From Promethearchaeota archaeon (lineage in GTDB: Archaea; Asgardarchaeota; Odinarchaeia; Odinarchaeales; JBHLKK01): a DNA stretch of 64,000 nt. The first letter of the stretch is position 1, and each line of letters opens with the position of its first letter. Location: positions 23,562 to 87,561 of the forward strand of contig JBHLPL010000001.1 of assembly GCA_048939465.1 (NCBI GenBank). Reading direction: 5' to 3'. The notes under the pieces were generated by a model. It was not told the DNA's origin, ran no database searches, and saw only the letters and a list, made by a program, of their open reading frames with translations. The position numbers and the translations under genes were made by a program. Shown here piece after piece: positions 36,932 through 62,927 of this stretch.

Positions 36932-37954
36932 TCATCGGATCATCACTATGAGTTTGATGGGACTGGCCAGATTCTTATCATTAACAAAAATGAGATCTCC
37001 TTCTTTCACTCCGGTATCTTTCAATACGATGCTATCCGGGACAATCTTGCCCTCGATAATAATCTCAGGATTCTGAAGGCCATAGGTCATTATCAGCCTG
37101 TTTTTTAATTCTTGAATGGGTTCTTCCAGGTTCACGACATATTTGACGCCTACGGTGCGGTACTTAGGACTGCAAACAACACAGCTCGGATTACGGACAA
37201 GCCTAATCTTTGTAAAAGACTGGCTCAATCCATCGTAAAATAGATAGTTGTCAAGCAGATCCTTGCGTTCTAAAATAATCTTTAGCGTTTCTTGTGCTTG
37301 GATTCCTCCGACTACTGTAGTTGTTGTGGAAATCATTGGAAATTTCTCCTTCTCTTGCTCTTTCTCTTTTCGCGCCTCTCCAGGAAGAGTACAGGCCTTC
37401 TGTAATCTTTCTTTTGGTATCAATGGTTGGCATTCCAGGCAGGGCGTTTCAAAGGGGATGATTACCTGAACGTTCCCCCACCAGCCAAATAATCCTCCAT
37501 GAATTAGAGGCTTATTCAAGTGAACACACATGGAATTCAGCCATCTGCGTGCCTCAAAAGTATCTAAGCCTTCCACGATGACCGAACTTCTCTGGTAGAC
37601 TTCTTTATCTATCGACCGCATATCCTTCATATAGGTACTTACCTTGACTTCCGGATTGAGTTTCTCAAGGAATTCCTCAGCAGCCTCCACTTTCAATCTT
37701 CCAATATCTTCTTCTCTGAAAAGTATTTGTCGGTTCAAATTCGAAAGCTCAATTGTGTCGTTGTCTATAAGAATCAACTTTCCTATTCCCATCAACGCCA
37801 GATCAAGAGCAACTACCGAGCCTAAAGCCCCCACTCCTACGACCAAAACCGTTGAATTGCGAATCAATCCTTGGTCCCATTCTTCGAGAAGTTCCTGTCT
37901 ATGATAACGACCTTCTCCTTCTTTCAAGCCTGCCCCCTCCTGAGGTGTTTCCAA
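36932..37954 (-). CDS. ubiquitin-activating E1-like enzyme (ThiF/MoeB/UBA family) with C-terminal beta-grasp-like extension
   Basis: Rossmann nucleotide motif VLVVGVGALGSVVALDLALMGIGKLILIDNDTIELSNLNRQ; catalytic region; two CxxC zinc pairs (TPCLECQ, PSCVVCSP); ~90-aa C-terminal extra domain. Confidence 0.8.
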   Translation of the reverse strand: METPQEGAGLKEGEGRYHRQELLEEWDQGLIRNSTVLVVGVGALGSVVALDLALMGIGKLILIDNDTIELSNLNRQILFREEDIGRLKVEAAEEFLEKLNPEVKVSTYMKDMRSIDKEVYQRSSVIVEGLDTFEARRWLNSMCVHLNKPLIHGGLFGWWGNVQVIIPFETPCLECQPLIPKERLQKACTLPGEARKEKEQEKEKFPMISTTTTVVGGIQAQETLKIILERKDLLDNYLFYDGLSQSFTKIRLVRNPSCVVCSPKYRTVGVKYVVNLEEPIQELKNRLIMTYGLQNPEIIIEGKIVPDSIVLKDTGVKEGDLIFVNDKNLASPIKLIVMIR

Positions 37955-38364
37955 GTAGCATACCTTTTGATATACTCTTTTACTTTCTCCTTGAATTCTC
38001 TTGGCGACTCACGCATTTCCTTTGCAGCCACTCGATTCAGAGGGTCGTGAGGGTTGGGAAAGCTCAGGACGTTTCTTATGGCCTCGATTACGCCAACTAA
38101 ATTTATGCTTGGAGACCAATCTTTCCCCAGAATGCCCAGACATATTCTTCCCTCCCTGGTGATATTTGGATGCCAAATTGGAGTCAAGAACCGAGCTTTG
38201 GGAGGTTTAAATGGATAGCTTCTGTCTACTTCTAACTCGATTTGGAAGACCCCTCCATCGTAAACACTGGTACCTAGAATGAATCCACGCCATTTTGTGA
38301 GGTCTCCACTTAGCGGTTGAAATGAAGGTTCCTCCTCCTCTATGCTCTTAGCTTCAAGTGCCAA
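37924..38364 (-). CDS. ubiquitin-conjugating enzyme E2 (UBC fold, catalytic Cys present)
   Basis: FKPPKARFLTPIWHPNITREGRICLGILGKDWSPSINL: canonical HPN motif and active-site Cys; overlaps E1 by 31 nt. Confidence 0.8.
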   Translation of the reverse strand: MALEAKSIEEEEPSFQPLSGDLTKWRGFILGTSVYDGGVFQIELEVDRSYPFKPPKARFLTPIWHPNITREGRICLGILGKDWSPSINLVGVIEAIRNVLSFPNPHDPLNRVAAKEMRESPREFKEKVKEYIKRYATWKHLRRGQA

Positions 38365-38540
38365 GCGCTCTAAGAATGCCTCTCTGTCTAAAATCTTTCC
38401 ATACCTCCCTCTGAATATGTAAAATCACAAAGAAATAAGTATGTGAAAAATATTAAAACCTTATAGTTCAGGATCGATCCTCCTGAATGATACGGCCTTC
38501 TATCCTCCAGATGAAAGATCCTAAGCGAAATAGAAAGTAT

Positions 38541-38783
38541 TTAAGGATCTCCTCCTTCGGTTCTAGTAATAAGATACACCTTATCTCTTTCGACGCACCC
38601 TGCTTCTTTAAGTGTCGTACTATCCAGCTGTTCCATACCTTTGAATGCAAGGACAAAGGTTGCTTCTGGTATACGTCTCTGTCTGGCAATTATTCTCTTG
38701 AGTTCACCGAATGAAATATTAGGCGCCACATCAAGTGTGGTCTTCATTCCACCAATTGCAGAGACAATCTCTACCTCCATCAT
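38541..38783 (-). CDS. ubiquitin-like beta-grasp protein with C-terminal GG-DP (pro-ubiquitin)
   Basis: alignable to ubiquitin over its length (MEVEIVSAIGGMKTTLDVAPNISFGELKRIIARQRRIPEATFVLAFKGMEQLDSTTLKEAG..LITRTEGG) and ends ..TEGGDP. Confidence 0.65.
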   Translation of the reverse strand: MMEVEIVSAIGGMKTTLDVAPNISFGELKRIIARQRRIPEATFVLAFKGMEQLDSTTLKEAGCVERDKVYLITRTEGGDP

Positions 38784-38798
38784 AAATCACCCCAATTA

Positions 38799-39038
38799 CT
38801 ATTTTACCATAAGATGTCTAGTGGAGAGTTTTCTTTTGCAGAAGGGACATTGGCCCTTCGTCTTAACCCATTCCAGCAGTTCAATCTTGTGAGCTTGGCT
38901 TCCGCAGTATGGACAGTATATTGTCTTCTCGCCGGGTCTTATTGGCAGAAGGCAAACGATGCACCTTTCTGGCTCCCAAAGCCACTCTCCTAAGACTCTA
39001 ACTTGCTTTATTACGAATCTGTCAGCTGCCTTCGACAT
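38799..39038 (-). CDS. Cys-rich RING-like zinc-finger protein (candidate E3)
   Basis: CIVCLLPIRPGEKTIYCPYCGSQAHKIELLEWVKTKGQCPFCK: CxxC-x12-CxxC-x4-H-x15-CxxC; paralogous to N-terminus of the next gene. Confidence 0.5.
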   Translation of the reverse strand: MSKAADRFVIKQVRVLGEWLWEPERCIVCLLPIRPGEKTIYCPYCGSQAHKIELLEWVKTKGQCPFCKRKLSTRHLMVK

Positions 39039-39181
39039 TTAGTATCTCCAAAGAAGATTAATTAAGAACACTATTAAATACTTTTGCGAATGCCCCCACT
39101 CGGGGCAGTTCAGACTCTTTGCTCTGAATTGATCATCTCCTACAGCCTTGGAATTGCAGATTAGTCGAAAAACCAACAGAG

Positions 39182-39913
39182 CTAACCCCCCAAAACCTCT
39201 TCAAACATATCAAGCAAAACATAGCGAGTTGAGGGATCAATGGCAACAGTTCCATAAGTTGGCACACCCAATAGTCTTCCCACAAGTTCTGGGTCCAATG
39301 AGTGGGGAAGGTCTTGTTTGTTTGCAATTGCAACAACCTTTGCATCAGGAACACGTTCTTGGACGAGGCTCATGATTCTCTTCCTGGTCCTGGCTACACT
39401 CGTTACAGACGAGTCCGTAACAACGATGATAATATCTGAGCCCCTGATCATTACGTCCCAGAATCGACCAAATCGTTCTTGTCCAGCGAAATCCCACACG
39501 ATCACTTTTACTGGCGTTTCCACCCCTTCGAGATTTTTGATATTGACCATTAGGGTAGGAGTATGGTTTATGGGAACTTCTTCATCAAAAAGCAATTTCA
39601 GCAGTGTTGTCTTGCCTGCACCGCCAAATCCCAAAAAGGAGACCTTAATGATCCTCATTAGCTGGCTTACGGAAAGTCTCATCTTACAGAAGGGACATTT
39701 ACCTTTGGTCTTAACCCATTCAAGTATTTCTCTTCTGTGAGCAATACATCCACAGTTTGGGCAGTCTATTGTCTTATCGTTAGGTCCTATTGGCAGAAGG
39801 CATACTATGCAATTCTTCGCTCCCACTTTTTCCACCCAGTCTTCCGATCTGTGGATATTGCAGAGCGTCAAATCGATTAGGAAATCCTGTCTCTCTTCAC
39901 TGGGCCACCTCAA
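39182..39913 (-). CDS. RING-like zinc finger fused to small GTPase
   Basis: N-terminal CIVCLLPIGPNDKTIDCPNCGCIAHRREILEWVKTKGKCPFCK; GTPase G1 GFGGAGKTTL, G3 WDFAGQERF, G4 ANKQDL. Confidence 0.7.
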   Translation of the reverse strand: MRWPSEERQDFLIDLTLCNIHRSEDWVEKVGAKNCIVCLLPIGPNDKTIDCPNCGCIAHRREILEWVKTKGKCPFCKMRLSVSQLMRIIKVSFLGFGGAGKTTLLKLLFDEEVPINHTPTLMVNIKNLEGVETPVKVIVWDFAGQERFGRFWDVMIRGSDIIIVVTDSSVTSVARTRKRIMSLVQERVPDAKVVAIANKQDLPHSLDPELVGRLLGVPTYGTVAIDPSTRYVLLDMFEEVLGG

Positions 39914-40074: not shown

Positions 40075-40623
40075 TTGAGTACTACGAATGTTTTTAAGTA
40101 TTCTACTACAAATATGTATTGCGTTTGTGAGGGACTGAATTTGAGCAGTTCAAAGCGGAAGCAATTTGAGATAAAGCTTGAAGTAATCAAAACTCCTAAG
40201 GGTGAAGTTCCCACGGTCAAAAGCTTAAGGCAGGTAGTTATGGGTCTAAATGAATTGAATAGTGATATCGTTAATGTGAGGTCTCAGATTATGGGGGAAA
40301 TAAAGGATTTAAAGCGTGATGTTACCGCAGTAAAGAAGTTGCTTGCCGAAGAGGCGGTTACTTTTGATGCCATCAATGAGAAGTTCACAGACCTTAACAA
40401 CAGCTTGGAGTCTCTATTAAAGCAAAAAACAGATGATAAAACCCTGAAGGCTGTTAAGGGGGTAGGGGCTACTCTAAACTCTCTTGAGACTCAGCTTTCT
40501 GAAATGGCGAAAAATGTGAAAGATGGACTTGCGGAACAGGCCAAAAATGTTGCTAATGCCGTAGGCAAACTCTACCTTTTCCTTGAAAAGGCAGAAGAAG
40601 GAAAGAAGAAAAAGACCTCCTAG
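40075..40623 (+). CDS. coiled-coil protein of unknown function (start uncertain)
   Basis: heptad-rich, K/E-rich sequence; no motif recognised. Confidence 0.35.
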   Translation: MSTTNVFKYSTTNMYCVCEGLNLSSSKRKQFEIKLEVIKTPKGEVPTVKSLRQVVMGLNELNSDIVNVRSQIMGEIKDLKRDVTAVKKLLAEEAVTFDAINEKFTDLNNSLESLLKQKTDDKTLKAVKGVGATLNSLETQLSEMAKNVKDGLAEQAKNVANAVGKLYLFLEKAEEGKKKKTS

Positions 40624-40633
40624 GCCTCTCTTA

Positions 40634-41689
40634 TTATGTGTAAAATCTATCTCTCTGTCTTTGTCTCTCTTCTAAGAAACTCACAAAGTCACTTAGGGTC
40701 GGATCATTCTCAAGTTCGTCGTGAATCAGTTCGGCTACGCTCAGAATTGATGCTGCAACATGTGCCTTGACTTGTTGTGTTTTCTTGTCGTCGGGCTTCA
40801 GGAAACTCATTATTCTTTTTTGAAACTGCTGTAGAGTCAGCAACCTATCAACCAAAAGACCGAATGATTTCATAATGTTCTCTCTTGTGGCTGAAGCATC
40901 CTCCTTTATTCCTACTGCTTCCATGGCACGAAGACATGGATATAATATCTCAGAGCCAAACCAATTTACCAGAAGGCCTCTTTTGTCTATGGTCTTGAGA
41001 AAAACCGATAGTGGAATCCCAAGTTCTTTTATTCTATTCTTCGCCAGCTGGGCCGCTTTTTCTAGCCCTACTTCATGTGTGGCCTTAAGAACCCCTACCA
41101 TGATTGAACTGACGGCAATGGAAAGAACCCTCCTGAGATTGTTGGCTTCCAACAGCTTGTTGATTAGCTCCTTTGCTTCATCCAGATTAATGTCTGATAT
41201 GACAAATGATTTTACGATTTCCAAAAGCTGACCTCTGACCTCTAAGCTTTTCCCGTAACCTGTTCCGTCCAGGGCAAGTAGAGTATAGGCAGTCTCAAGT
41301 ATTTCTTTATCAAACCATTGCACGACCAGGTATTCATTTGTAACCCTTCTCAAATCTGTGGCGGTCTTAACGTCTTTGAGTATATGTGCTAGCCGTTCAA
41401 TAAACGTTTCAAAAATCGCAACTATGTATTCTTGGACATTTGCGTCTATTCCGTATCTCTTCAACTCTTTTTTTATAATCTTTCTAAAGCCGGACTCGGT
41501 TATCTCTCCCTTCAAGTATTTAATGAACGGAGCAAAAAGATCTTTTTTGAGATTGTCCAAAGAGGGCGGCTTGAGTTCCCTGACTAGCCTCTCAGTCATT
41601 CCCCACACTATGAAATAGTAGAAGTCTCCCATTGCCTTATAGTATTCGCTAGCGAATTCCTCACCCAATTGCTGCTCACCTCTCATCAA
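40634..41689 (-). CDS. hypothetical all-alpha protein (operonic partner of HerA-like ATPase)
   Basis: 351 aa; overlaps upstream ATPase gene by 14 nt, suggesting co-translation. Confidence 0.4.
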   Translation of the reverse strand: MMRGEQQLGEEFASEYYKAMGDFYYFIVWGMTERLVRELKPPSLDNLKKDLFAPFIKYLKGEITESGFRKIIKKELKRYGIDANVQEYIVAIFETFIERLAHILKDVKTATDLRRVTNEYLVVQWFDKEILETAYTLLALDGTGYGKSLEVRGQLLEIVKSFVISDINLDEAKELINKLLEANNLRRVLSIAVSSIMVGVLKATHEVGLEKAAQLAKNRIKELGIPLSVFLKTIDKRGLLVNWFGSEILYPCLRAMEAVGIKEDASATRENIMKSFGLLVDRLLTLQQFQKRIMSFLKPDDKKTQQVKAHVAASILSVAELIHDELENDPTLSDFVSFLEERQRQRDRFYT

Positions 41690-44282
41690 TGAGGTTTATC
41701 AGAGTATTCAAGAGTTCGCAGAACTTCCTGGCGTCTTCTTCGCTAGATGATACACCGACAAGAGATGCGATAGCGATTCTGTTGTTCTTTGCCGAAGTAA
41801 TGGCAATTCTCAAGTTTCCCTTTCCAGCCAAAATTACAGGTATCTCCTCATCTGATGGCACACTATCGATTGTCCAATTCTTGGATTTCAGTAAATCATG
41901 GATCTCCTGCAGGACTACTTGAGGTTCCTTGGATACTTTCTTGTGACAAGTCTTGGAATATACCTTGATATCACTTGGGAACAAATGTTCGTGATATCTA
42001 TACCTCATAAGTCTATTTAGAAATCTTTTTAACATGTCATCTGGAACATCAAGGGTCTTCGGTGCTGGTATTTCATAAGATCCGGCCGCTGCCACTTTTT
42101 CTGAGTCTTCGGGGTTGGCCCCTTCTTCAATGACTTCTTCGTCAGGTATTGCATATTCAATAAGCTTTGGAGATGCTTCTCTTCCGGCATGCTGACTTGT
42201 TCTGGGTCGAATTCTCAAAACAAATCCCCGGTTCGTAGTTAGTCTGGTTGACTGATCCATTATTATGGGGGTTCCAACTGGAAGGCTTCTTATGAAACTC
42301 GACTTTGAAATTTCTTTGGGAATCTCTGCCGGGGATCTTTTCATGAGTGCCTTAATATCATCTGCATAAGTCAAGTTGTGAGCAATCAGAATATCTACTT
42401 GAGAGAGGATACGGGCGTCAGTTGCTGCTGGTTGTTGGGTACACAACAACAGCCCACATCCCGGTTTTCTGCCTTCTTTAGCGTAATCAATGAGGGGCTC
42501 AGAAGCAATTGTCTCTCCATCTGAAGGGACTACTTGCTGGGCTTCGTCTATTAGAAGCCAGGTTACTGGTATCTTTTCTTCTATATCCCCATATCCGAGA
42601 TGTTTTGCCTCAATCGTTCTGGAGATCTTCTTTCGCTCTCTTAGGATCTTCCGTGCAAGAATCCCAACTACCAACTCCCGGATACTGTCCCCCAGAAAGC
42701 TTACATCTACTATAGTAATCTGATTTGGAACAACTATTTCGTTGAATGCTGTCCCTTTCTTAGAGAATATCCCCCATTGTTTGGCGGATTCCAGTCTAGA
42801 AATAACGGCTCTTCGAGTATCAAGTCTGAATCCTCCTTCCTTGGAAAGGATTTCCGTATCATCTTGAACGCACTTTATCATATCGTCAATAGTGTAATCT
42901 TCTCCTTTACCATCAATACGCATTCGGTTTCCATAGGCATCCACCACGGAATAGCCGTCTCTAACCTTATTGACTACTCTTCCGGTCAGAAAACCTCTTG
43001 GACTGGACTGCTCCAGTTTAAAGAGATAACACCAATCATCTGCAGTAAGCTCACCAGGCTTTATCGAGAATGCATCATCTCTTGTTTGTTCTGGAATCTG
43101 ATGGAATAATCCTACAGGAACTAGGACCTGAACGTTTGAATATCCCTCTGGGTCTAGTTTCCATTCCCCAAGATTCTCTAGCTCGTCCTTCTCCCAGTTC
43201 GGATATTTCATGCTCCAAAATATGCCCATCGGATCAACTATCACAACAGCTATCCCGAGACCACATCTAGCTAGTTCTTCAGCAATGACTCCGAGTGTGT
43301 ATGATTTTCCGGATCCCCGATGGCCGCATATGAAAATAACGTGGGGTTTCACTGCGTCTACCAGTACCTTACGGCCGAAATACCCTTTACCGCCAGCAGG
43401 TTTTTCGCAGATCCTCCCAATATACAAAGTCCCACGACATCCAAATTTCTCTTGAAATTGCTTGGTCCTCCCAACAATAACTGACTCTCCGAGACAGTCA
43501 TCAAGGAGTCTCAGCTCCTCCTTCATTGCGGGGCTGTATTCAACAGGAAACGATTCCTCCTTGAGGACTCTCATCTCCCCCCTTACGTGGTTGATGAGCA
43601 TCTGCAGTTCTTCTATACTTCTCGGAGGTATGGTCAGCATGCTTTCTATATATTTCCGAAGCTTATCCTTCTTTGGATAGTGCCCAGAGGAATATCCTGA
43701 GAGTTCCCACAGCATAAGCTCGATAGTCTCTTCTTTCGTCAGCCCCTCAAAAGGCACTGCGTCAACTGAAGCGGTGTCCAGAAATTTTGAATCACCCAAC
43801 GCGAGGTACAAAAGGAGGGACGCATTTATCCTATCGTTTCCGTCGAATTCCTTCAGCATACTGATAGCATTCTCTAGGTATCTCGGTTCTTTTTTCACGT
43901 TATATGCCTGAAGAAGTATGCGAAATCGATGTACGTCTATCTTGTTGTTAGATAGTGCGTAATCATATACCTTCTTCTCAGCCTCGTCAATATTTATTTC
44001 TAAGGCTCCCGAGGCTCCTTTCAATGCTTGAATGGTTTCCCAGGTATTCTTCAAAGGATCATCCTGAAATGCCCATTCCCCGGATGGTAATTGTGAGGAG
44101 AGAATGTCTTCGACAATGATTGATGCTATTTCCAGAAAGACAAGGTCTTTTGTCATCTGATAGACTCGTACGCATGCATCGACGAGGAACGGTCTATCAA
44201 CAGCTCTTGCGGATTCGGCACTGAAACTTGTTATGTAGTCTAGGATATGTGGTAATATTTCACATAGAGGTCTTCCATGCAA
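41676..44282 (-). CDS. HerA/DUF87-like P-loop ATPase with large novel N-terminal domain
   Basis: Walker A HVIFICGHRGSGKSYTLGVIAEEL, then VVIVDPMGIFW (HerA-like DphGEY equivalent); Walker B LLIDEAQQVVP; N-terminal ~290 aa with repeat-like SGEWAF..WETIQAL segment. Confidence 0.55.
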   Translation of the reverse strand: MHGRPLCEILPHILDYITSFSAESARAVDRPFLVDACVRVYQMTKDLVFLEIASIIVEDILSSQLPSGEWAFQDDPLKNTWETIQALKGASGALEINIDEAEKKVYDYALSNNKIDVHRFRILLQAYNVKKEPRYLENAISMLKEFDGNDRINASLLLYLALGDSKFLDTASVDAVPFEGLTKEETIELMLWELSGYSSGHYPKKDKLRKYIESMLTIPPRSIEELQMLINHVRGEMRVLKEESFPVEYSPAMKEELRLLDDCLGESVIVGRTKQFQEKFGCRGTLYIGRICEKPAGGKGYFGRKVLVDAVKPHVIFICGHRGSGKSYTLGVIAEELARCGLGIAVVIVDPMGIFWSMKYPNWEKDELENLGEWKLDPEGYSNVQVLVPVGLFHQIPEQTRDDAFSIKPGELTADDWCYLFKLEQSSPRGFLTGRVVNKVRDGYSVVDAYGNRMRIDGKGEDYTIDDMIKCVQDDTEILSKEGGFRLDTRRAVISRLESAKQWGIFSKKGTAFNEIVVPNQITIVDVSFLGDSIRELVVGILARKILRERKKISRTIEAKHLGYGDIEEKIPVTWLLIDEAQQVVPSDGETIASEPLIDYAKEGRKPGCGLLLCTQQPAATDARILSQVDILIAHNLTYADDIKALMKRSPAEIPKEISKSSFIRSLPVGTPIIMDQSTRLTTNRGFVLRIRPRTSQHAGREASPKLIEYAIPDEEVIEEGANPEDSEKVAAAGSYEIPAPKTLDVPDDMLKRFLNRLMRYRYHEHLFPSDIKVYSKTCHKKVSKEPQVVLQEIHDLLKSKNWTIDSVPSDEEIPVILAGKGNLRIAITSAKNNRIAIASLVGVSSSEEDARKFCELLNTLINLIDER

Positions 44283-44324
44283 ATGGTTTCCCCCATTGGC
44301 AGATTCAGATGTTTTCAGAAGGAA

Positions 44325-44939
44325 TCATGACCTGCTTTCCTTTAGTTTCTTAATTTCTTTTTCCAGCTCTGAGACCTTCTTCTCCGGTGCTGGAAGAGCA
44401 ATACCTGTTTCAACAGTTATCTCCTGATCGATTTCGGTCAACGTTTTTTCAATTTCCTTATCACTAATCTCTTGCGAAACCGTGATTTCGAGTCCTGATT
44501 CAGCGATCTCTTTCGACACCTCAAATTGCTGTAGCTGACCTTCAACTTCTTTAATCAATTTGGCTATCTTTGGTACCTTCACAGCGTTCTTAAGTCCCCC
44601 AAGGACGTTACGGAGACTACCTAATATTTTGGACAAATCAGTAACAGATTCGCTTTGTCTGAGTTTTACAATTAGTCCCTCTATGGTCAATCTGTAGTTG
44701 TCAATGCCAACTGCCCACTTCTGAAATTGCAGGTAATGCTTTGCGTACGTCTTTGCAGCCTCATTATTGCCCTTGATACGTTGAGTTCGAGCTTTAGTAC
44801 GGCTCTTGTCGCCTTCTCTTTCCAGTTGCATCCTTTGTCTATCGAGTTTCCGTGTGAGCAAATCCAACTGAAAAATGGCCTTCTCAAGCCTTTTTCTCTT
44901 AGACCCCCCTAACCAGTCAAACAAACGGCCTAACGACAA
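44325..44939 (-). CDS. ESCRT-III (Snf7/CHMP family; Vps2/24/46-like)
   Basis: 204 aa; basic N-terminal helices (KRKRLEKAIFQLDLLTRKLDRQRMQLERE...KGNNEAAKTYAKHYLQ) and acidic C-terminal helices with E/I-rich tail; Snf7-like charge asymmetry. Confidence 0.6.
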   Translation of the reverse strand: MSLGRLFDWLGGSKRKRLEKAIFQLDLLTRKLDRQRMQLEREGDKSRTKARTQRIKGNNEAAKTYAKHYLQFQKWAVGIDNYRLTIEGLIVKLRQSESVTDLSKILGSLRNVLGGLKNAVKVPKIAKLIKEVEGQLQQFEVSKEIAESGLEITVSQEISDKEIEKTLTEIDQEITVETGIALPAPEKKVSELEKEIKKLKESRS

Positions 44940-45100
44940 CTATTACACCTCATTAGTCACTGAAAGGTTGTACAACACACACAATTAAAGCTTACGAAAT
45001 TACATCAAATACGGCTTTTCATCACCTAAGTTTTTTAGGTTTGTTCTTCTAATAGTTAACTAGCCTATCGCAATGTCTACAGAATCCTATTTTCCTGAGG

Positions 45101-46264
45101 TTGGGATTGATGTCTGATAAGCTGTTCAAATACGCCACCCAGATGGCGAAGGAAGCTGTGAAACTTGACAAGCAAGGCAAACAGAAGCTGGCTGTACAGA
45201 AATATATTCATGCGGCCGATATCTTGATGAGGTTTCTGAAATTAACCGAGAATCCCGCACTGAGAAAAGTATGTTATGAAAAGGCGGAGCAGTATGTGCA
45301 AAGAGCTAAAGAACTACAAGGTGTAACACCAGGTCTGCCGGCAGTATCAGAAAAAGCAGCGGGGAAAGCGCTGACCAAGGAAGATCAAGCCCTCCAAGAA
45401 GCAATCTCGGATACCATAATCACTGAGAAACCAAGTGTTGAATGGGAAGACGTAGCAAATCTAGAGACGGCAAAACAAGCCTTGAGAGAGGCTGTTATCT
45501 TACCGATGCTCAGACCAGATATTTTTACTGGTGCAAGGGAACCTTGGCGTGGATTATTGTTGATCGGACCACCCGGATGTGGAAAAACACTGCTCGCAAA
45601 AGCTGTGGCGAACGAATGCAACGCAACATTCTTCAGCGCTGACGCAGCCTCTTTGGTTTCAAAGTGGCTGGGAGAATCGGAAAAACTTGTAAGCACATTA
45701 TTTACCGTTGCACGAAGTAGCTCCCCTTCCGTTGTGTTCATCGACGAAGTGGATGCTTTGGCAACAGTTAGATCGGGTGATGAGGTTGGAGGTGAGCGGA
45801 GAATGAAGACGCAGCTATTAATAGAAATGGATGGGGTTCGAAAACGAAAGGGAGAGCAAGTAGTAGTTCTTGGCGCCACGAACAGGCCATGGGATCTTGA
45901 CCCGGGTTTTCGTAGAAGGTTCGAAAAAAGAATTTATGTGCCCCTTCCTGATAAGGAAGGCCGTCGCGAGATATTTAAGATTCACGTCAGAGGAATTGAA
46001 ATAGCTTCAGATGTTGATTTTGATGAACTAGCGACTCTTACTGAGGGATACTCCGGCTCAGATATTGCGCTGATATGTAGGGATGCTGCCATGATGCCAA
46101 TACGTGAACTGGATACCGCAGGCACGTTGACTAGGAAAGATATCAAAGTTCGATCGGTAGATCGTGAGGATTTTCTGAAGTCCATGAAAAAGGTTAGGCC
46201 AACTGTTTCACCAGACGAACTGGAGAAATACGAGGAATGGACCAAAGAATTCGCATCAGAATGA
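45101..46264 (+). CDS. vps4: Vps4-like AAA ATPase (N-terminal MIT domain)
   Basis: MIT-like three-helix N-terminus (LDKQGKQKLAVQKYIHAADILMRFLKL...AEQYVQRAKELQ); AAA Walker A GPPGCGKTLLAKAVA; Walker B VVFIDEVD; second region of homology. Confidence 0.85.
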   Translation: MGLMSDKLFKYATQMAKEAVKLDKQGKQKLAVQKYIHAADILMRFLKLTENPALRKVCYEKAEQYVQRAKELQGVTPGLPAVSEKAAGKALTKEDQALQEAISDTIITEKPSVEWEDVANLETAKQALREAVILPMLRPDIFTGAREPWRGLLLIGPPGCGKTLLAKAVANECNATFFSADAASLVSKWLGESEKLVSTLFTVARSSSPSVVFIDEVDALATVRSGDEVGGERRMKTQLLIEMDGVRKRKGEQVVVLGATNRPWDLDPGFRRRFEKRIYVPLPDKEGRREIFKIHVRGIEIASDVDFDELATLTEGYSGSDIALICRDAAMMPIRELDTAGTLTRKDIKVRSVDREDFLKSMKKVRPTVSPDELEKYEEWTKEFASE

Positions 46265-46278
46265 ACTGGTGATATATA

Positions 46279-47025
46279 TTGTCGGTAAGGGAAAAGCCAC
46301 GTAAAAAAGCTGGGAAGTCTCAAAAGGAAGAAACTGACAAGAAGGAGCGAATCAAAGAAGAGCTTGAGGAACTCAAGGAAGAAGTTGAAACAATGGTGGA
46401 GGCAGAAGAAGCTGAGACAATAGAAGAGGTTGAGAAAATCCAAGAGCCTAGCGCTAGGCAACTTCCGAAGGCGGTTGCTGAGGAAATCTCCTCTGAATTG
46501 GAGAAGATCTGTAACTTATATGAATGGGTTGCAAATCCTGAACAAGTCAGATGGATGTATTGGATGCCCTCCAATAAAGAGCATATTGATTCATGGAGAG
46601 ACGAATGGGCTGATTTCTTGTTTCAATGGGCCCGAGCAAAAATCCTTCATATAGTAACACTGGTCTTGCTTATGGGTGAACACCCATTTGATAAGTTATC
46701 TCCAAAGGTGGATTCGCTGAGAGTTATTATGAAAACCCTAGCTGAGAAGGATCTTGCTGAATTCTTGGATAATAAAGAAACCAGATTGCGAATATACTGG
46801 AGGACTCTTAATGAGTGGGCAGAAATAATCTATAACTGGGCACTCAATACCGGAAGAATGGATATAAGTGTTTTTGATGTTATTAATGACAGAGGGGAAA
46901 AGTGGGGCTTTCACACGCTGCCAGCGAAAGAAATTAGACTCATCTTCAGGATTATGGTAGAGCGTGGGTTGGCCCGTTGGATGGACGAGAAGAGAGGCCA
47001 TATTGAGATAAGAGTAGACTTTTGA
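46279..47025 (+). CDS. Vps25-like ESCRT-II subunit (tandem winged helix) with acidic N-terminal extension
   Basis: IYWRTLNEWAEIIYNWALNTGRMDISVFDVIND ~ human VPS25 IMWRRPEEWGKLIYQWVSRSGQNNSVFTLYEL; C-terminal HTLPAKEIRLIFRIMVERGLARWMDEKRGHIEI ~ HGLDEATLLRALQALQQEHKAEII..DGRGVKF. Confidence 0.6.
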   Translation: MSVREKPRKKAGKSQKEETDKKERIKEELEELKEEVETMVEAEEAETIEEVEKIQEPSARQLPKAVAEEISSELEKICNLYEWVANPEQVRWMYWMPSNKEHIDSWRDEWADFLFQWARAKILHIVTLVLLMGEHPFDKLSPKVDSLRVIMKTLAEKDLAEFLDNKETRLRIYWRTLNEWAEIIYNWALNTGRMDISVFDVINDRGEKWGFHTLPAKEIRLIFRIMVERGLARWMDEKRGHIEIRVDF

Positions 47026-47145
47026 CCTGTCTTTCGCGGTTATGCACCATCTAAGCGGATTATCTTGCGAAAATCTTAAATCTTTTTATGTGAATATTAT
47101 AACAGATCACGCGTAACTCCGATTCATGGATTAGATTAAGATGAA

Positions 47146-50100
47146 GTGGTCGTCATGCAAGCCAAAAGAAAAAATCTGCTAATATCTCTGGTCTTCACAC
47201 TATTTCTGATCTCAACGCTCTCATCAATTACAGTTCCACCCGTCACAGCTTCTCCAGATACTGCTGACTGGTGGAATTATAACTGGAATCAGAGGGTTCC
47301 AGTGATGATAAACACAACAGGTCACAACACATCCGACATACCGATAAAGATCGAAGGAATTAATTTCACTCAGCTTCTACTGGATCTGGGTGTCGGCTCT
47401 CCCCACGATAATAACTCGGTAAGAGTCGTGGAGTGGAACGTAGCATCGGAACTGAACACTGAATTACCGAGCTTATTTGCTCCTGCAGGCACGTATGACA
47501 GCTCCAGCAATGCTGTAGGTGATGTTTACTGGACAATGAATGGAACAACACTTGAAAACACAAACAGAACCTTCTATGTATACTTCGATACTACTGATGC
47601 TCCTGGTGGTCCCAAGAGCCCACCAAGCTACAGTGTGGATCCTCGTCTACCTGAAGGAATAGCCTATGTAAGAAACGCTAAGGACGATATATCTTATGAA
47701 TCGGCCCAACAACTTGCTGCGGAATATGGGCTCGCCCAAGCTGCACTGTTCAATGAAAGCGTGAAATCAGGAAGTCATTACAGGAGCGGATCGGGTTGGC
47801 AAAACAACAGTATAGATCTCGTACCTGATGACTACTCAATGATAATACTTGGGTCAGACTCCCTAGACGGTGGCGAAATACCTGGAAAACTCGATATAGA
47901 CTCCCAATTCAGATCAAACTTGGAAGCTTTCATTGCTGGCGGCGGGATACTTGTTATTCAACAGATAACGTCAAGCGATCCTGCCCAGCCACTGACTGGA
48001 ATTCAGTTCACAAGCTCTCACGGAGAAAGCTATAAGAAACCACTGCAACAGCACGAAATCACAACTAATCCAAACAATATTCGAACTGAAAATCTCAATT
48101 CGCTTTCAGATGGATTTGATAAAATTACGGACTCTACTCGCTACTCTTCGATAGCCAACGTGACAGATAACGGCGGAGGTCCAACAGGCCATCGAATCAG
48201 AATCATTCAGAGAGGAGCAGGCTATGTTATTGTAGAGGTACTGGGATGGACCTCAACTGGCGATATAGATAAGTGGAAACAGATCTTTGAAAACTATCTG
48301 AATTATCATATCAACCACACAAAGGATAGTCTGGCCATAACCGTTGGCAGCCAAGCAGAATATAGTCTGATTAACGATGTTACCGTAGTTGTAACAAATC
48401 ATGAAGGATTATTCGTTCCTGACGCAAATGTTACTATGGTCAACACGACAGCCCAGGCAAACAATCTTAGTGGCTACAACCAATGGGCATTAACAGATAG
48501 CAACGGCCAAGTTTTCTTCCCGGATGTACCAGATAACAACTATAATGTTACGGCAACTTACGTAACTAACATGGGAGATAGCACCGGAATTCTGAACGAT
48601 ACATTTTCAAACTTCAACATCAATTATACTCAAACCCTCAATCTTAAAGTAAACATTACAAGGCTATTAGTGAACATCACTGATGTAGATAATATGACCC
48701 AGTATGATCTGATACCTAACTGGGCAGAACATTATATCGTTGGCCTTTTCAACCAGTCCGATGGGAGTCCGATGGCCAACACAACGACAACAACCTTGTA
48801 CGAGTCTGGTGGTATTAACTGGCTTGTAGGAGAACTCTGGTGGCATAATTCATCGGACAATCATGTGATCAAAGTATTGTATGAGCATCCTGATTATTCG
48901 AATACACTGACTCTTAACGAGACTAGTAACATACAACTTGATGTTTCGACTTCCTTCAACGTCAACGTCAGTATGACAAGGCTGACTGTTTTTGCCCGTG
49001 GGTATCCGACCATCGATCCGCTTGTTAATGTGGTTCTTGAGTTGAGCAACGATACGCAAGCAATAGCTAATGTCACAGCAGACGATTCAGGAGCGGTAGT
49101 CTTCTACTGGAGGACTCAACCCTCGCAGAATTACTCTATACGCGCATTCTACTTCGATACACTGGTCTCATTCATCAAATTCCATGAAAGCTGGTCTGAT
49201 TGGAATGAAAGCGTTAGCCTACCACTTCCAAATGCTACCGAAAAGCTGATTGATATTCAGCTGGGTGCGGAGTATGAGACGGATCTTGTACTAACTGCTT
49301 TTACCCCCGACGTCACGTATGGGGATAACGTAACGGTCACCGTGTATTTCAATGTCACAAGTCCTTCGCCAAGACCCGTAACTGGAGCAACCGCCAGATG
49401 CTACCTCAGAGTGGGAACAACAGATATCTTTATGGAAACAATGACTGAGGCAGGTTCCGGATATTATACACTGACATTCAACACGACTCACTACGGTGGC
49501 ATAATAGGCGATGAAAACATAGAATATCGTATCTTAGTAATTGTTGAAAAATCAGGGTATACCTCTCCTACGCCGATATTCACCGACCTGACAATCAGGG
49601 GGCTCGCAACAACTTTGGATTGTTCAATCTCACCAGAAACCATTTACTGGGGCGACCTCATAACAGTAGACGTTACGTACGAGGATTTGGAGGACGCAAC
49701 AGTCTCATACATAATTGGAAGTTGGGATTCTGGCGTATTCAGTGATCTTGGAAATGGAAACTACCGCACCTCGATAGACACCTCTAAATCGTCCTTCTGG
49801 GGAGACTACATATTAAAAATAACTGCCGAAAAGCCGAATTATGAAATGAAGTACGCAGAAATAGCTCTTAGAATCAATCAGATACAGACTCTGATAAACG
49901 GATCTCGTATACTTGTCACATCACCCATCAGCGTGTATGCAATGGAAGACAGTTTAATACACTTCAACTACACAACAGCTGGCAATATCGGCATCAACTC
50001 GACAGTCCATCAGTACTACTGGGAGAGCATATCAAGCGGTAGTGGCTACGGAGACTTGTCTTATCTTGGGAACGGTATGTATGGGCTGGATTTTGATACT

Positions 50101-62279: not shown

Positions 62280-62927
62280 TTACTCTTTTTCTTTTTCCTC
62301 TTCTGGTATGTCTTCTTTAAGCCCTTTCTTAATATCTTCAAGTTCCTTCCGTATTTTGTCCTTCTTCTTTTCAGCGACAGCCTTCTCTTTTTCGGTGGGA
62401 ATCTCAGGTAACTCTTCTTCTATGGCCACTTCCTCTTGAAGTTTTGCTAACTCCCTCTCTACGTCAATGTCTTCGCCTTCATCCAAAGCTGTGGCACTTA
62501 ACATCTCACTGGTTTTCTCTATCTCATCAACCAGTTGTTCAGTTTTTAGCATAACTTCAGTAGCTTTCTCACTTGACATAAGTCTTCTTGCTTCTTCAAG
62601 TTGTTCAAGACCAACTTCAAGGGCACGTCCCATGTCGGCAGTATCTCTAGCAGTCTCGATCATATCAATAACATCTTCTAGGCTGCCTACCTGTCTATGA
62701 TAACGATTCATCCATGTGGTATATCTTTTCCATTTTCGAAGATGTGTCCTTGCCCCATCTGTGTTTCCTTGCCTTACAAGCTCTCTTGCTCTCTGCTTGC
62801 TTTCTCCTGCCTTTCTTTCAAATCCACGAACTCTGAGTGTCATCTTGTTGATTGTTGCACGCATTTCTGTAACTGCTTCGTCTCTGCTTTCCTTTTTCTT
62901 GGGGAATAGCTTCCTCAGAAAACCCAA
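62280..62927 (-). CDS. ESCRT-III (Snf7/CHMP family; Vps20/32/60-like)
   Basis: 215 aa; N-terminal MGFLRKLFPKKK basic start, basic helices (ARELVRQGNTDGARTHLRKWKRY), acidic C-terminal half ending in EEL..EKEKE; Snf7 organisation. Confidence 0.6.
   Translation of the reverse strand: MGFLRKLFPKKKESRDEAVTEMRATINKMTLRVRGFERKAGESKQRARELVRQGNTDGARTHLRKWKRYTTWMNRYHRQVGSLEDVIDMIETARDTADMGRALEVGLEQLEEARRLMSSEKATEVMLKTEQLVDEIEKTSEMLSATALDEGEDIDVERELAKLQEEVAIEEELPEIPTEKEKAVAEKKKDKIRKELEDIKKGLKEDIPEEEKEKE

Follow-up and report, generated by a model that had tools for sequence, protein, structure and literature searches.

Asgard gene clusters described in Odinarchaeum LCB_4, Heimdallarchaeota AB_125, Loki, Hel and Thor (PMC9192718, PMC10936438) encode ESCRT-IIIA and ESCRT-IIIB, Vps4, Vps25, a Vps22-like EAP30 protein, Vps28, a UEV-Vps23 protein, and ubiquitin with E1, E2 and RING proteins. 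In these clusters vps25 directly follows vps4, Vps25 carries an N-terminal extension, and the vps22-like, vps28 and vps23-like genes form a co-directed second block, the usual arrangement being one in which vps25 is co-directed with both vps4 and ESCRT-III (PMC10936438). The functional split between A-type and B-type ESCRT-III, and the recruitment of B before A, were demonstrated with Heimdallarchaeota AB_125 proteins in a study that describes the cellular role of Asgard ESCRT as unknown (PMC11804906). Yeast two-hybrid experiments with Asgard proteins detected interactions of Vps25 with ESCRT-IIIB and of Vps4 with ESCRT-III (PMC9192718), and Asgard Vps4 complements a yeast vps4 null (PMC7240154).

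The window (the whole 64-kb stretch of Asgard DNA analysed here) encodes E1, E2, ubiquitin, RING, UEV-Vps23, Vps28, a Vps22-like protein, a second EAP30 paralog, Vps25, ESCRT-IIIA, ESCRT-IIIB and Vps4, and shares with the described clusters the position of vps25, the second block and the extension of Vps25. It contains a trio of ESCRT-III, vps4 and vps25 genes, whose ORFs are all in the ORF list of the window where the preliminary description had placed them, embedded in a ubiquitin/ESCRT-I/ESCRT-II supercluster:

36932..39913, minus strand: ubiquitin module of E1 ThiF, E2, ubiquitin, RING and RING+Arf-like GTPase (Pfam)
44325..44939, minus strand: ESCRT-III, A-type (Vps2/24/46, CHMP1-3-like), 204 aa (Pfam Snf7, PDB matches)
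44337..44369, minus strand: MIM1-like C-terminal helix of ESCRT-IIIA, ELEKEIKKLKE, residues 191-201, after LPAP
45110..46264, plus strand: Vps4 AAA+ ATPase, 384 aa, ORF opening at TTG 45101 (Pfam, yeast Vps4 match)
45134-45319, 45554-45946 and 46130-46252, plus strand: MIT, AAA and Vps4_C domains of Vps4 (Pfam)
46279..47025, plus strand: Vps25 (ESCRT-II subunit), 248 aa, TTG start (Pfam, PDB, fold search)
46279..46518, plus strand: N-terminal extension of Vps25, residues 1-80 (AF2 secondary structure, charge profile)
46519..47022, plus strand: tandem winged-helix core of Vps25, residues 81-248 (AF2, superposition with 7pb9, yeast and human)
51176-51922, minus strand: Vps22-like EAP30 (ESCRT-II; Pfam EAP30 2.5e-16)
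51923-52729, minus strand: Vps28 (ESCRT-I; Pfam VPS28 8e-17, full model, positions 2-188)
52751-53548, minus strand: UEV/E2-variant Vps23-like protein (Pfam UQ_con/UEV)
62280..62927, minus strand: ESCRT-III, B-type (Vps20/32/60, CHMP4-7-like), 215 aa (Pfam Snf7 7.5e-20)

Judged by sequence, the trio encodes the central part of an ESCRT machinery for membrane cutting, of eukaryote-like type, in an Asgard archaeon related to Hodarchaeota, a group placed closest to eukaryotes in some phylogenies. Its cluster type has already been described (Hatano 2022, Makarova 2024), and the window provides one further example. By contrast with the described clusters, ESCRT-III is divergent here instead of co-directed, only the A-type gene is adjacent, with the B-type gene about 15 kb downstream of vps25 and 18 kb from the ESCRT-IIIA gene, a gene for a 1318-aa surface protein is inserted after vps25, before the ESCRT-II/I block, and Vps28 matches the full-length Pfam model. 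The surface protein gene is also present in both related MAGs, in which the gene order from E1 to UEV is identical and the proteins are ~80-93% identical; the ubiquitin module is conserved in related MAG L002, and the order of the EAP30, Vps28 and UEV genes is the same in L001. The result is a compact, syntenic and apparently complete ubiquitin-ESCRT gene set that is suited to reconstitution, and the trio adds a well-preserved example to the documented picture of ESCRT-II, ESCRT-III and Vps4 as older than eukaryotes and encoded alongside ubiquitin machinery.

The preliminary description had proposed searches with Snf7, MIT, Vps4_C and ESCRT-II profiles, all four of which matched above their thresholds. 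The ESCRT-III gene does lie on the minus strand, opposite vps4, as had been claimed, and its product belongs to the Snf7 family (PF03357, 52.1 bits, above the cutoff of 27.3; E 8e-14), but the label 'Snf7-like' does not extend to its subtype. In a sequence search of the PDB the best matches are CHMP1B (7e-7), CHMP2A (3e-6) and CHMP3 (3e-5), with Snf7, CHMP4 and CHMP6 all unmatched at E<=1. The protein is classed as A-type from these closer CHMP1-3 matches together with the MIM1-type helix. ESCRT-III proteins, which polymerise on membranes, have a basic core at the N-terminus and an acidic, autoinhibitory C-terminal part; this charge asymmetry is present here, residues 1-110 being basic (pI 10.5) and residues 111-204 acidic (pI 5.0). 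Each of the six A-type orthologs in the alignment keeps the MIM1-like helix as ELEK[ED]IK[KR]LKE, which fits the description of Asgard MIM1 with Ile replacing Leu (PMC7240154), suggesting MIT binding. ESCRT-IIIB shows the reverse match pattern (Heimdall ESCRT-IIIB 9ftl 2.9e-17, Vps20/32/60-like 9fn1 1e-11, Snf7 7e-4) and carries an LPEIP MIM2-like motif; both kinds of tail are kept in orthologs and agree with the published Asgard motifs (PMC7240154).

The description of Vps4 as MIT plus AAA was correct, the Pfam domains MIT (4e-12), AAA (7.5e-42), AAA_lid_3 (6.5e-16) and Vps4_C (1.5e-12) all scoring above gathering thresholds. Its Walker A (GPPGCGKT), Walker B (VVFIDE) and pore loop 1 (KWLGE) motifs are intact, and residues 13-347 align with yeast Vps4 (5uie_A, 2.7e-91). 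The gene is flanked by those for ESCRT-IIIA and Vps25, which is the genomic association used as a criterion by Makarova et al. 2024.

The assignment of the C-terminal part of the third protein to Vps25 holds in profile, PDB-sequence and structure searches. The match to the Pfam ESCRT-II family (PF05871) reaches 47.5 bits, above the cutoff of 27, and is limited to residues 145-195. With phmmer against the PDB, residues 81-244 match the crystal structure of an Odinarchaeota Vps25 (7pb9, 7.5e-41), to which the core is 38% identical, and human and yeast Vps25 are matched at 6e-7 and 4e-5, respectively. The AF2 model (pLDDT 89 overall and 96-98 over residues 81-248) superposes on 7pb9 with TM 0.92 and rmsd 1.3 Å over 167 columns. 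Its best seven fold matches are all Vps25, with yeast and human proteins at ranks 2-7 over 163-177 columns (yeast 1xb4_A, 174 columns, E 1e-7; human 3cuq_C, 163 columns). A search of 1.84 billion representatives gave 167 homologs at E<=1e-3, and NCBI holds an identical 248-aa protein labelled as hypothetical protein.

The three genes very likely encode the late-acting components at the core of a ubiquitin-ESCRT pathway of eukaryote-like type, for which the following mechanism is proposed. Going beyond the protein identities, motifs and synteny observed in the window, the interactions, order of action and cellular process would follow described systems by analogy. Vps25 would form the ESCRT-II arm, docking on a dimer of the Vps22-like EAP30 protein via its first winged-helix domain or its extension, and its second winged-helix domain would nucleate the B-type ESCRT-III (62280-62927), the partner to be expected for Vps25, on the membrane. 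The B-type polymer would then recruit the A-type ESCRT-III (44325-44939), which would narrow the membrane neck. The MIT domain of Vps4 would bind the MIM1-like and MIM2-like tails, and Vps4 would use ATP to pull subunits from the ESCRT-III polymer, leading to remodelling and recycling. Set against this pathway are the location of the expected Vps25 partner, ESCRT-IIIB, outside the trio, the divergent ESCRT-III gene in place of the usual Asgard co-direction with vps4 and vps25, and the fact that the most conserved Asgard neighbour of ESCRT-IIIA is a HerA-like ATPase and not vps4.

The eukaryotic ESCRT-II/III/Vps4 machinery shares with the window the fold of Vps25 with its tandem winged helices (yeast 1xb4, human 3cuq), ESCRT-III proteins of both A-type and B-type that carry MIM1-like and MIM2-like tails, and a Vps4 consisting of MIT, a single AAA cassette and a C-terminal helix. 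It differs in sequence, with eukaryotic Vps25 16-20% identical to the window protein, and in the number of ESCRT-III paralogs, which is at least eight in eukaryotes, with two seen in the window. Eukaryotic Vps4 has a beta-domain insertion to which Vta1 binds; the length of Vps4 is 437 aa in yeast and 384 aa here. Unlike in eukaryotes, the window genes are clustered and have ribosome-binding sites.

Such sites precede the start codons of all three trio genes. The ESCRT-IIIA gene starts with TTG, with GAGGTG upstream at 6-nt spacing. For vps4, ATG 45110 is a more likely start than TTG 45101, given a GAGGT 8 nt before it and a related MAG whose ortholog has been called with 384 aa. The intergenic region thus measures 161-170 nt and not 160 nt, as previously given. 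The TTG of vps25 is preceded by GGTGA 7 nt upstream and lies 14 nt past the vps4 stop, a gap reported earlier as 15 nt. Because this gap is so short and contains the vps25 ribosome-binding site, vps4 and vps25 are probably one transcript. On the other side, the ESCRT-IIIA gene is divergent from vps4 as described, but it does not stand alone: it heads a co-directional run and appears to be the first gene of a second unit, with genes for a HerA-type hexameric ATPase and a 351-aa helical protein. The region between the two units was previously proposed to hold both promoters, and contains the following features:

44940..45109, no strand: divergent intergenic region between the ESCRT-IIIA operon (minus) and vps4-vps25 (plus), with candidate promoters and 5' leaders
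44969..45001, no strand: 33-nt block invariant in three genomes, 30-62 nt upstream of the ESCRT-IIIA start codon
45028..45039, plus strand: invariant AAGTTTTTTAGG, 71-82 nt upstream of ATG 45110 (three-way alignment)

This region is 81-82% identical to those of two related MAGs, compared with 57-60% at vps4 four-fold degenerate sites, and contains A/T-rich invariant blocks in the three-way alignment; Rfam gave no match to it. The 33-nt block includes AATTAAAG (CTTTAATT on the minus strand), a candidate TATA/BRE for the ESCRT-IIIA operon, and AAGTTTTTTAGG is a candidate TATA-like element for vps4-vps25. The conservation makes putative promoters for both units plausible, as evidence that is weak because the three compared genomes are close relatives.

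The ATPase and helical protein genes of the second unit are as follows:

41676..44282, minus strand: HerA/FtsK-superfamily ATPase, 868 aa (Pfam DUF87), 42 nt downstream of ESCRT-IIIA
40634..41689, minus strand: 'X', a helical protein of 351 aa, whose gene shares 11-14 nt with the HerA-like gene

The ATPase comprises an all-helical N-domain (1-242), a HerA core (~250-700), a linker and a C-terminal alpha/beta domain (748-868). Its AF2 model (pLDDT 87) has HerA hexamers as best Foldseek matches, and its Walker A (GHRGSGKS) and Walker B (LLIDEA) motifs are invariant. Full-length homologs occur across several Asgard groups (group names from source records). HerA-NurA, Sir2-HerA, DUF4297-HerA and FtsK/SpoIIIE systems have the HerA/FtsK-type core in common with it, down to a beta-rich region that precedes the P-loop domain. 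By contrast with these systems, no NurA, Sir2 or DUF4297 partner was found in its neighbourhood, where PADLOC gave only generic HerA matches, and no membrane anchor was found in its sequence; its gene-order partners are ESCRT-III proteins and X. With the HerA models of NCBIfam it scores 44 bits at best, where the cutoff is 800, and so falls far below all HerA equivalogs. The N-domain (240 aa) and C-domain (120 aa) have no significant Pfam match and no recognisable relatives, and X has no significant match in Pfam, NCBIfam, PADLOC or the PDB.

The ESCRT-IIIA/HerA-like/X module recurs in loci of Loki, Jord, Hel, Heimdall and Thor (by record name). The gene order A-HerA-X-B is found in Lokiarchaeia and Jordarchaeaceae, A-HerA-B in Helarchaeota and two further loci, and HerA-X-B in one 'Asgard group' MAG, and in Heimdallarchaeota HerA-X has a B-type ESCRT-III gene 6 kb away. 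In Loki, Jord and Hel loci, the Snf7 gene 5' of the HerA-like gene has a product 44-50% identical to ESCRT-IIIA. ESCRT-IIIB is orthologous to the product of the Snf7 gene 3' of HerA/X in other Asgard loci, and the loci of Loki, Jord, Heimdall, Thor and the 'Asgard group' have an X ortholog 3' of the HerA-like gene; the window A, B and X proteins match their counterparts with E 1e-33 to 1e-73. Of 14 loci with the Asgard-type HerA, 12 have an ESCRT-III gene nearby, whereas none of 76 generic HerA/DUF87 loci does (Fisher p = 3e-13, many loci being related and so not independent), and the module loci represent at least four different surrounding gene contexts. No paper describing the module was found in the literature, and PMC9192718 and PMC10936438 do not discuss the HerA-like and X genes beside ESCRT-IIIA.

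These gene orders tentatively suggest an undescribed Asgard module of ESCRT-IIIA, a HerA/FtsK-type hexameric ATPase whose N- and C-domains are lineage-specific, a ~350-aa helical protein and ESCRT-IIIB, in which the ATPase might quite possibly be a second, Vps4-independent ESCRT-III ATPase that couples DNA translocation or clearance to abscission or remodels the polymer, joined here to vps4-vps25 via a divergent control region common to both. The more interesting point of the locus is that both Asgard ESCRT-III genes show a conserved linkage to genes for a HerA-type ATPase and a helical protein; were this linkage functional, the DNA-translocase-like partner would point to division/abscission or to vesicle-mediated DNA handling. 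Somewhat less probable is that ESCRT-IIIA acts mainly in this separate module, of which ESCRT-IIIB is a part in many lineages, with the adjacency to vps4-vps25 being lineage-specific. FtsK clears or pumps DNA at bacterial septa, and the translocase might likewise clear or pump DNA through a closing neck, or act on the polymer as a second motor. The recurrent gene orders, the orthology of A, B and X, the ESCRT-III linkage across several contexts, the invariant ATPase motifs with a fold matching the HerA DNA translocase, and the missing NurA and defence-system partners all favour such a role. In addition, vps4 was not found within 7-8 kb in seven other Asgard HerA-like/ESCRT-III loci with called genes; because of this, and of its conserved HerA-like neighbour, part of ESCRT-IIIA function may be Vps4-independent. 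Against it, the case is one of guilt by association, one Thorarchaeota locus (5.5 kb available) contains HerA-X without ESCRT-III, and a DNA-handling role cannot be told from a polymer-handling one by sequence because the N-domain, C-domain and X lack recognisable relatives. The A-type tail also retains its MIM1-like motif, which argues that ESCRT-IIIA is still a Vps4 substrate. A role in this module and one in the ubiquitin-ESCRT pathway are compatible and not exclusive.

ESCRT-III and Vps4 divide Sulfolobales cells, and the cluster might be a Cdv-type division system like TACK CdvB/CdvC instead of one for ubiquitin-linked sorting, which we consider unlikely. CdvABC of TACK archaea likewise has genes for an ESCRT-III homolog and an MIT-AAA ATPase side by side, the best NCBIfam match of Vps4 is cell_div_CdvC (NF041006), and the unknown function of Asgard ESCRT (PMC11804906) leaves room for such a role. 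However, the CdvC score of 340.9 bits is far under the equivalog cutoff of 650, no CdvA gene was found (the only trace being a sub-threshold CdvA-like coiled-coil match in the UEV protein, with 19.2 bits where the cutoff is 30), CdvB proteins lack a MIM1-like tail such as that of the A-type protein (PMC7240154), and the same cluster holds ESCRT-I, ESCRT-II and ubiquitin genes, which are absent from Cdv systems. This rejection covers membership of the Cdv family, and not a division role of the machinery.

It is scarcely credible that the ESCRT-III-like gene encodes a PspA/Vipp1-type membrane-repair protein, as the preliminary description had asked, or that the Vps25 match is spurious: PspA and ESCRT-III belong to one superfamily and the Pfam ESCRT-II match spans just 51 residues, but Snf7 is the only Pfam match at E<=0.1, with the PspA/IM30 profile not matched, the PDB matches are CHMP proteins, and Vps25 aligns over 164 residues with 7pb9 and matches yeast and human Vps25 by fold.

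Within the ubiquitin-ESCRT machinery, the N-terminal extension is a part of Vps25 that departs from eukaryotes. It had been described as an acidic extension of ~70 aa; it is indeed present with a net charge of -8 (residues 1-80), but is ~80 aa long, basic and then acidic (+5 over residues 1-25, -11 over residues 26-60), and usual for the family. In the AF2 model it consists of a basic motif (MSVREKPRKK), a charged helix (15-44), a low-confidence linker (45-63) and a second helix (64-80). An extension of at least 40 aa precedes the winged-helix core in 87 of 107 representatives (median 79 aa), and is thus the family norm, as already noted in the literature. Eukaryotic Vps25 has N-terminal PPXY motifs that contact Vps22/Vps36, whereas a scan of the entire window protein found no PPxY motif, and the 80-aa charged extension with its basic N-terminal motif is present instead; PPXY is a feature of the eukaryotic branch only, and Asgard Vps25 proteins carry the charged extension. 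Among 83 Vps25 homologs, 42 have the pattern phi-[KR]-E-[KR] within their first 12 residues, compared with 6.4+/-2.5 in shuffles.

The ESCRT-III, vps4 and vps25 genes are three clean open reading frames, placed as they had been in the preliminary description:

44325-44939, minus strand, ESCRT-III (204 aa; Pfam Snf7, 52.1 bits, E 8e-14)
45101-46264, plus strand, Vps4 (Pfam MIT, AAA, AAA_lid_3 and Vps4_C, each over its gathering score)
46279-47025, plus strand, Vps25 (248 aa; Pfam ESCRT-II, 47.5 bits, over residues 145-195 only)

The proposed ESCRT-III/Snf7-like identity of the first protein is borne out by Snf7 being its sole Pfam family, and a better match to PspA/Vipp1 is set aside since no PspA/IM30 Pfam model was matched. 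Vps4, previously read as MIT plus AAA, contains AAA_lid_3 and Vps4_C besides, carries the Walker A motif GPPGCGKT, the Walker B motif VVFIDE and the pore loop KWLGE, and is alignable with yeast Vps4 over residues 13-347 (2.7e-91). A yeast vps4 null is complemented by Vps4 of other Asgard archaea. With vps4 as the sole query, one genome-contig scan recovered two true relatives only, plus bacterial AAA proteins. The Vps25 alignment survives profile, PDB-sequence and fold comparison: beyond the Pfam match, a PDB sequence search placed the crystal structure of Odinarchaeota Vps25, 7pb9, against residues 81-244 (7.5e-41), and also recovered a second archaeal ESCRT-II subunit, 9uyv (3e-26), human Vps25 (6e-7) and yeast Vps25 (4e-5). 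An AlphaFold2 model built from 80 homologs (pLDDT 89; core 96-98) superposes on 7pb9 with TM 0.92 and an rmsd of 1.3 A, and on yeast and human Vps25 over 174 and 163 columns, respectively, and all seven of its best PDB fold matches are Vps25. The trio is real and was correctly interpreted, yet it belongs to a well-known kind; what the analysis adds is chiefly a conserved linkage between ESCRT-III, a HerA-like ATPase and a helical protein, together with a correction of the ESCRT-III subfamily and the recognition of a family-wide Vps25 extension with an N-terminal motif.

The HerA-like gene (868-aa DUF87/HerA ATPase, 41676-44282, minus strand) lies on the same strand as the ESCRT-III gene, 42 nt past it, and overlaps by 11-14 nt the gene for a 351-aa helical protein, here called X (40634-41689, minus strand). 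Full-length homologs of the HerA-like protein (33-43% identity, 86-100% coverage) are present in MAGs labelled Jord-/Freyarchaeota, Lokiarchaeia, Helarchaeota, Thorarchaeota and Heimdallarchaeota, in the following gene neighborhoods.

Gene order at loci of HerA-like homologs
Lokiarchaeia and Jordarchaeaceae loci: Snf7, HerA-like, ~345-aa protein, Snf7
Helarchaeota and one other MAG: Snf7, HerA-like, Snf7
'Asgard group' MAG: HerA-like, X, Snf7
Heimdallarchaeota locus: HerA-like, X; Snf7 6 kb off
Thorarchaeota locus: only HerA-like and X, the contig being short

At these loci, Snf7 genes upstream are orthologous to the vps4-adjacent ESCRT-III gene (E 1e-56 to 1e-64, identity 44-50%) and those downstream to a second ESCRT-III gene of the window, at 62280-62927 (1e-33 to 1e-40), while the ~345-aa proteins are orthologs of X (1e-72). 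Where genes were called, at seven loci, no vps4 lay closer than 7-8 kb to the HerA-like gene. A metagenome scan gave five further loci of the Asgard-type ATPase, four of them with ESCRT-III genes alongside, and no ESCRT-III gene was found by generic DUF87/HerA cores in ~75 loci or in a Methanofastidiosum control. ESCRT-III genes are thus near the Asgard-type ATPase at 12 of 14 loci versus 0 of 76 for generic HerA-like proteins (Fisher p = 3e-13, with several of the loci related and hence non-independent). Together, ESCRT-IIIA (the vps4-adjacent type), a HerA/DUF87-like ATPase of 870-1020 aa, a helical protein of ~316-351 aa and ESCRT-IIIB (the 62280 type) form a conserved Asgard module, represented by 40634-44282 (minus strand) in the window and by the homolog loci L015, L016, L017, L018, L019, L020, L021, L024, L027 and L039. 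The main comparative study, by Makarova et al. (PMC10936438), makes no mention of the HerA-like/ESCRT-III linkage, and no paper linking HerA/DUF87 to Asgard ESCRT-III was found in a literature coverage that was incomplete and does not imply that the linkage is unreported.

In the AlphaFold2 model of the HerA-like protein (pLDDT 87), an all-helical N-domain of 240 residues precedes a HerA-type core, for which the PDB offers HerA hexameric DNA translocases as the best matches; a disordered linker then leads to an alpha/beta C-domain of 120 residues. Its Walker A and Walker B motifs are invariant among 46 homologs, and its isolated N- and C-domains gave nothing significant in Pfam. A defence-island reading of the gene is rejected, the PADLOC matches being to generic HerA only; a NurA partner, a defence partner and a membrane segment are all absent. 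For X, neither Pfam, NCBIfam and PADLOC nor PDB sequences gave a match, its profile likewise found nothing in the PDB, and a word-indexed homolog search returned two close relatives only. The ATPase may pump DNA at a closing neck, serve as a second motor on the polymer, or do something unrelated. A 182-aa coiled-coil ORF (40075-40623, plus strand) converges on the X gene; it is 79% identical in the related locus L002 and without a Pfam family. It was considered as a degenerate ESCRT-III and rejected, its similarity to the B-type being marginal at best (E ~2e-3 in a 14-sequence database) and a Snf7 Pfam match being absent.

The subfamily of each ESCRT-III is indicated by its closest relatives and named here, A or B, after Souza et al. 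(PMC11804906). The PDB matches of the 44325-44939 protein are CHMP1B, CHMP2A, CHMP3 and CHMP1A, with no Snf7, CHMP4 or CHMP6 entry at E<=1. The 62280-62927 protein matches a Heimdallarchaeota ESCRT-IIIB (2.9e-17), a Vps20/32/60-like protein (1e-11) and yeast Snf7, and CHMP1B at 0.39 at best. By sequence, the vps4-adjacent gene is thus classed as A-type (Vps2/24/46) and the distant 62280 gene as B-type (Vps20/32/60). The C-terminal tail of the A-type protein ends in LPAPEKKVSELEKEIKKLKE, which is kept in its orthologs and agrees with the Asgard MIM1 description (PMC7240154), and the B-type protein contains the MIM2-like motif LPEIP. Because published yeast two-hybrid assays for other Asgard archaea showed binding of Vps25 to the B-type and not the A-type protein (PMC9192718), the direct partner of Vps25 is likely the product of the non-adjacent gene rather than of the neighboring ESCRT-III gene.

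The acidic N-terminal extension ascribed to Vps25 is present, though it is not plainly acidic, as residues 1-25 carry a net charge of +5 and residues 26-60 of -11. In the model, a long charged helix (15-44) leads through a linker of low confidence to a confidently predicted helix (64-80). Such extensions have precedents: crystals of Odinarchaeota Vps25 were reported only once residues 1-58 had been deleted, MK-D1 Vps25 was described as having an 'unstructured N-terminal extension', and additional N-terminal subdomains were mentioned for Vps25 by Makarova et al. (PMC10936438). Scanned in full with HMMER, 1.84 billion representatives yielded 167 Vps25 homologs; among the 107 with a near-complete core, the segment before the first winged helix has at least 40 residues in 87 and at least 60 in 78 (median 79), so that an extension is the norm of the family. 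At the extreme N-terminus, a motif of the form hydrophobic-[KR]-E-[KR], commonly with P and further basic residues after it, occurs within residues 1-12 in 42 of 83 diverse homologs, compared with 6.4+/-2.5 in shuffled extensions; in the window Vps25 it takes the form MSVREKPRKK (within residues 1-14, 46279-46320), and the homologs considered with it are P0004-P0133. In eukaryotic Vps25, N-terminal PPXY motifs hold Vps22/Vps36. PPXY is absent from the window protein. The basic N-terminal motif, conserved as described, is a candidate PPXY replacement, or else a candidate membrane or partner contact.

Shine-Dalgarno-like sequences precede all three genes: GAGGTG 6 nt upstream of the TTG start of the ESCRT-III gene, GAGGT 8 nt upstream of the vps4 ATG at 45110, and GGTGA 7 nt upstream of the TTG start of vps25. 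The latter start is backed by an NCBI protein of 248 aa with the identical sequence, and also by homologs 80-84% identical that retain the entire N-terminus. For vps4, ATG 45110 is the likelier start since a related MAG has the ortholog annotated with 384 aa, and the intergenic region, previously given as 160 nt, is therefore 170 nt (44940-45109); the gap between vps4 and vps25 likewise measures 14 nt, not 15. A hairpin, CATCAG-AATGAA-CTGGTG (46254-46271, plus strand), spans the vps4 stop and contains the GGTG of the vps25 ribosome-binding site; as a consensus-scan match only, it could modulate translational coupling. Identity of the 170-nt spacer among three related genomes is 81-82%, versus 57-60% at four-fold degenerate vps4 sites, and the spacer contains two invariant blocks:

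44969-45001, invariant 33-nt block containing AATTAAAG, 30-62 nt upstream of the minus-strand ESCRT-III start
45028-45039, invariant AAGTTTTTTAGG, 71-82 nt upstream of the vps4 ATG

On comparison of these three close genomes, the two blocks can reasonably be taken as candidate TATA/BRE elements of two archaeal promoters firing in opposite directions. Rfam gave no match over 44200-47300, so the conserved intergenic block belongs to no known RNA family. A sigma-70 scan, a bacterial model not applicable to archaea, returned 0 sites, and the terminator-like matches of the bacterial scan fall mostly within coding sequence.

Proteins identical or nearly identical to those of the window carry the labels 'Promethearchaeota archaeon' and 'Candidatus Hodarchaeota archaeon', which marks the window as part of an Asgard MAG. 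The trio is embedded in a larger set of ubiquitin and ESCRT genes, beginning with the following block:

36932-39913, E1 (ThiF), E2, ubiquitin, a RING protein and a RING plus Arf-like GTPase protein (Pfam)

It is followed by the coiled-coil ORF, X, HerA-like, ESCRT-III, vps4 and vps25, then by a 1318-aa surface protein, EAP30 (Vps22-like), Vps28 and a UEV/E2-variant protein, and farther downstream by a longin plus GTPase protein, a 601-aa second EAP30 paralog and the second ESCRT-III (62280-62927). The order from E1 to the gene past UEV is the same in two other MAGs, with proteins ~78-93% identical. A canonical ubiquitin-linked ESCRT pathway is the best-supported reading, in which Vps25, as the ESCRT-II arm, would nucleate the B-type polymer, the A-type protein would be recruited by this polymer, and the MIM-like tails would be recognised by Vps4 to drive turnover, the whole chain being tied to the ubiquitin system encoded alongside; every interaction is taken from homologs studied elsewhere (PMC9192718, PMC11804906, PMC7240154). 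In the 'typical' Asgard arrangement, vps25, vps4 and ESCRT-III are co-directed (PMC10936438). By contrast, the A-type gene of the window points the other way and is part of the HerA-like/X unit. Most economically, ESCRT-IIIA/HerA-like/X and vps4/vps25 are two conserved units set back to back in this lineage and sharing a control region.

Several neighbors deserve mention. The two RING-finger genes by ubiquitin (38799-39913, minus strand) are paralogous and both kept in L002, and one is a 243-aa fusion of a RING finger and an Arf/Roc-like GTPase. The 1318-aa protein (47146-51102, plus strand), between vps25 and the ESCRT-II/I genes, is a predicted type I surface protein. It has a signal peptide, one CarboxypepD_reg-like domain and 41 N-x-S/T sequons, where ~18 would be expected; its only membrane segment is C-terminal, near residue 1125, and its predicted cytoplasmic tail is Lys/Glu-rich and 173 aa long. 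Both related MAGs encode it at this position, with 77-81% identity, and it could be a pathway cargo or adaptor, or a mere passenger. The Vps28 homolog (51923-52729, minus strand) spans in one protein the whole Pfam VPS28 model (positions 2-188 of 188). Near the B-type gene, the 601-aa EAP30 (Vps22/36-family) paralog (59839-61644, plus strand) has six CxxC pairs within residues 1-81, which probably make up three zinc ribbons, and a C-terminal region matching the EAP30/Vps22 family. Its match to the GLUE/PH-like domain of Vps36, which in eukaryotes is a genuine PH domain, is sub-threshold (residues 246-290; 22 bits, cutoff 24.1). It may be the counterpart of the family that Makarova et al. describe in Asgard archaea as 'wH + SB + three Zn ribbons'. 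Close to this paralog and to ESCRT-IIIB is a fusion of a Fuz_longin_1 longin-like domain and an Arf/Ras-like small GTPase (57903-58760, plus strand). The cluster is flanked by genes for an ArsA/Get3-like ATPase (33317-34276, plus strand; 7.8e-87), a zinc-ribbon plus Yip1-domain membrane protein (36079-36864, plus strand) and a VTT/DedA-domain protein (55807-56649, minus strand), all predicted to be of a membrane-biogenesis or trafficking type.
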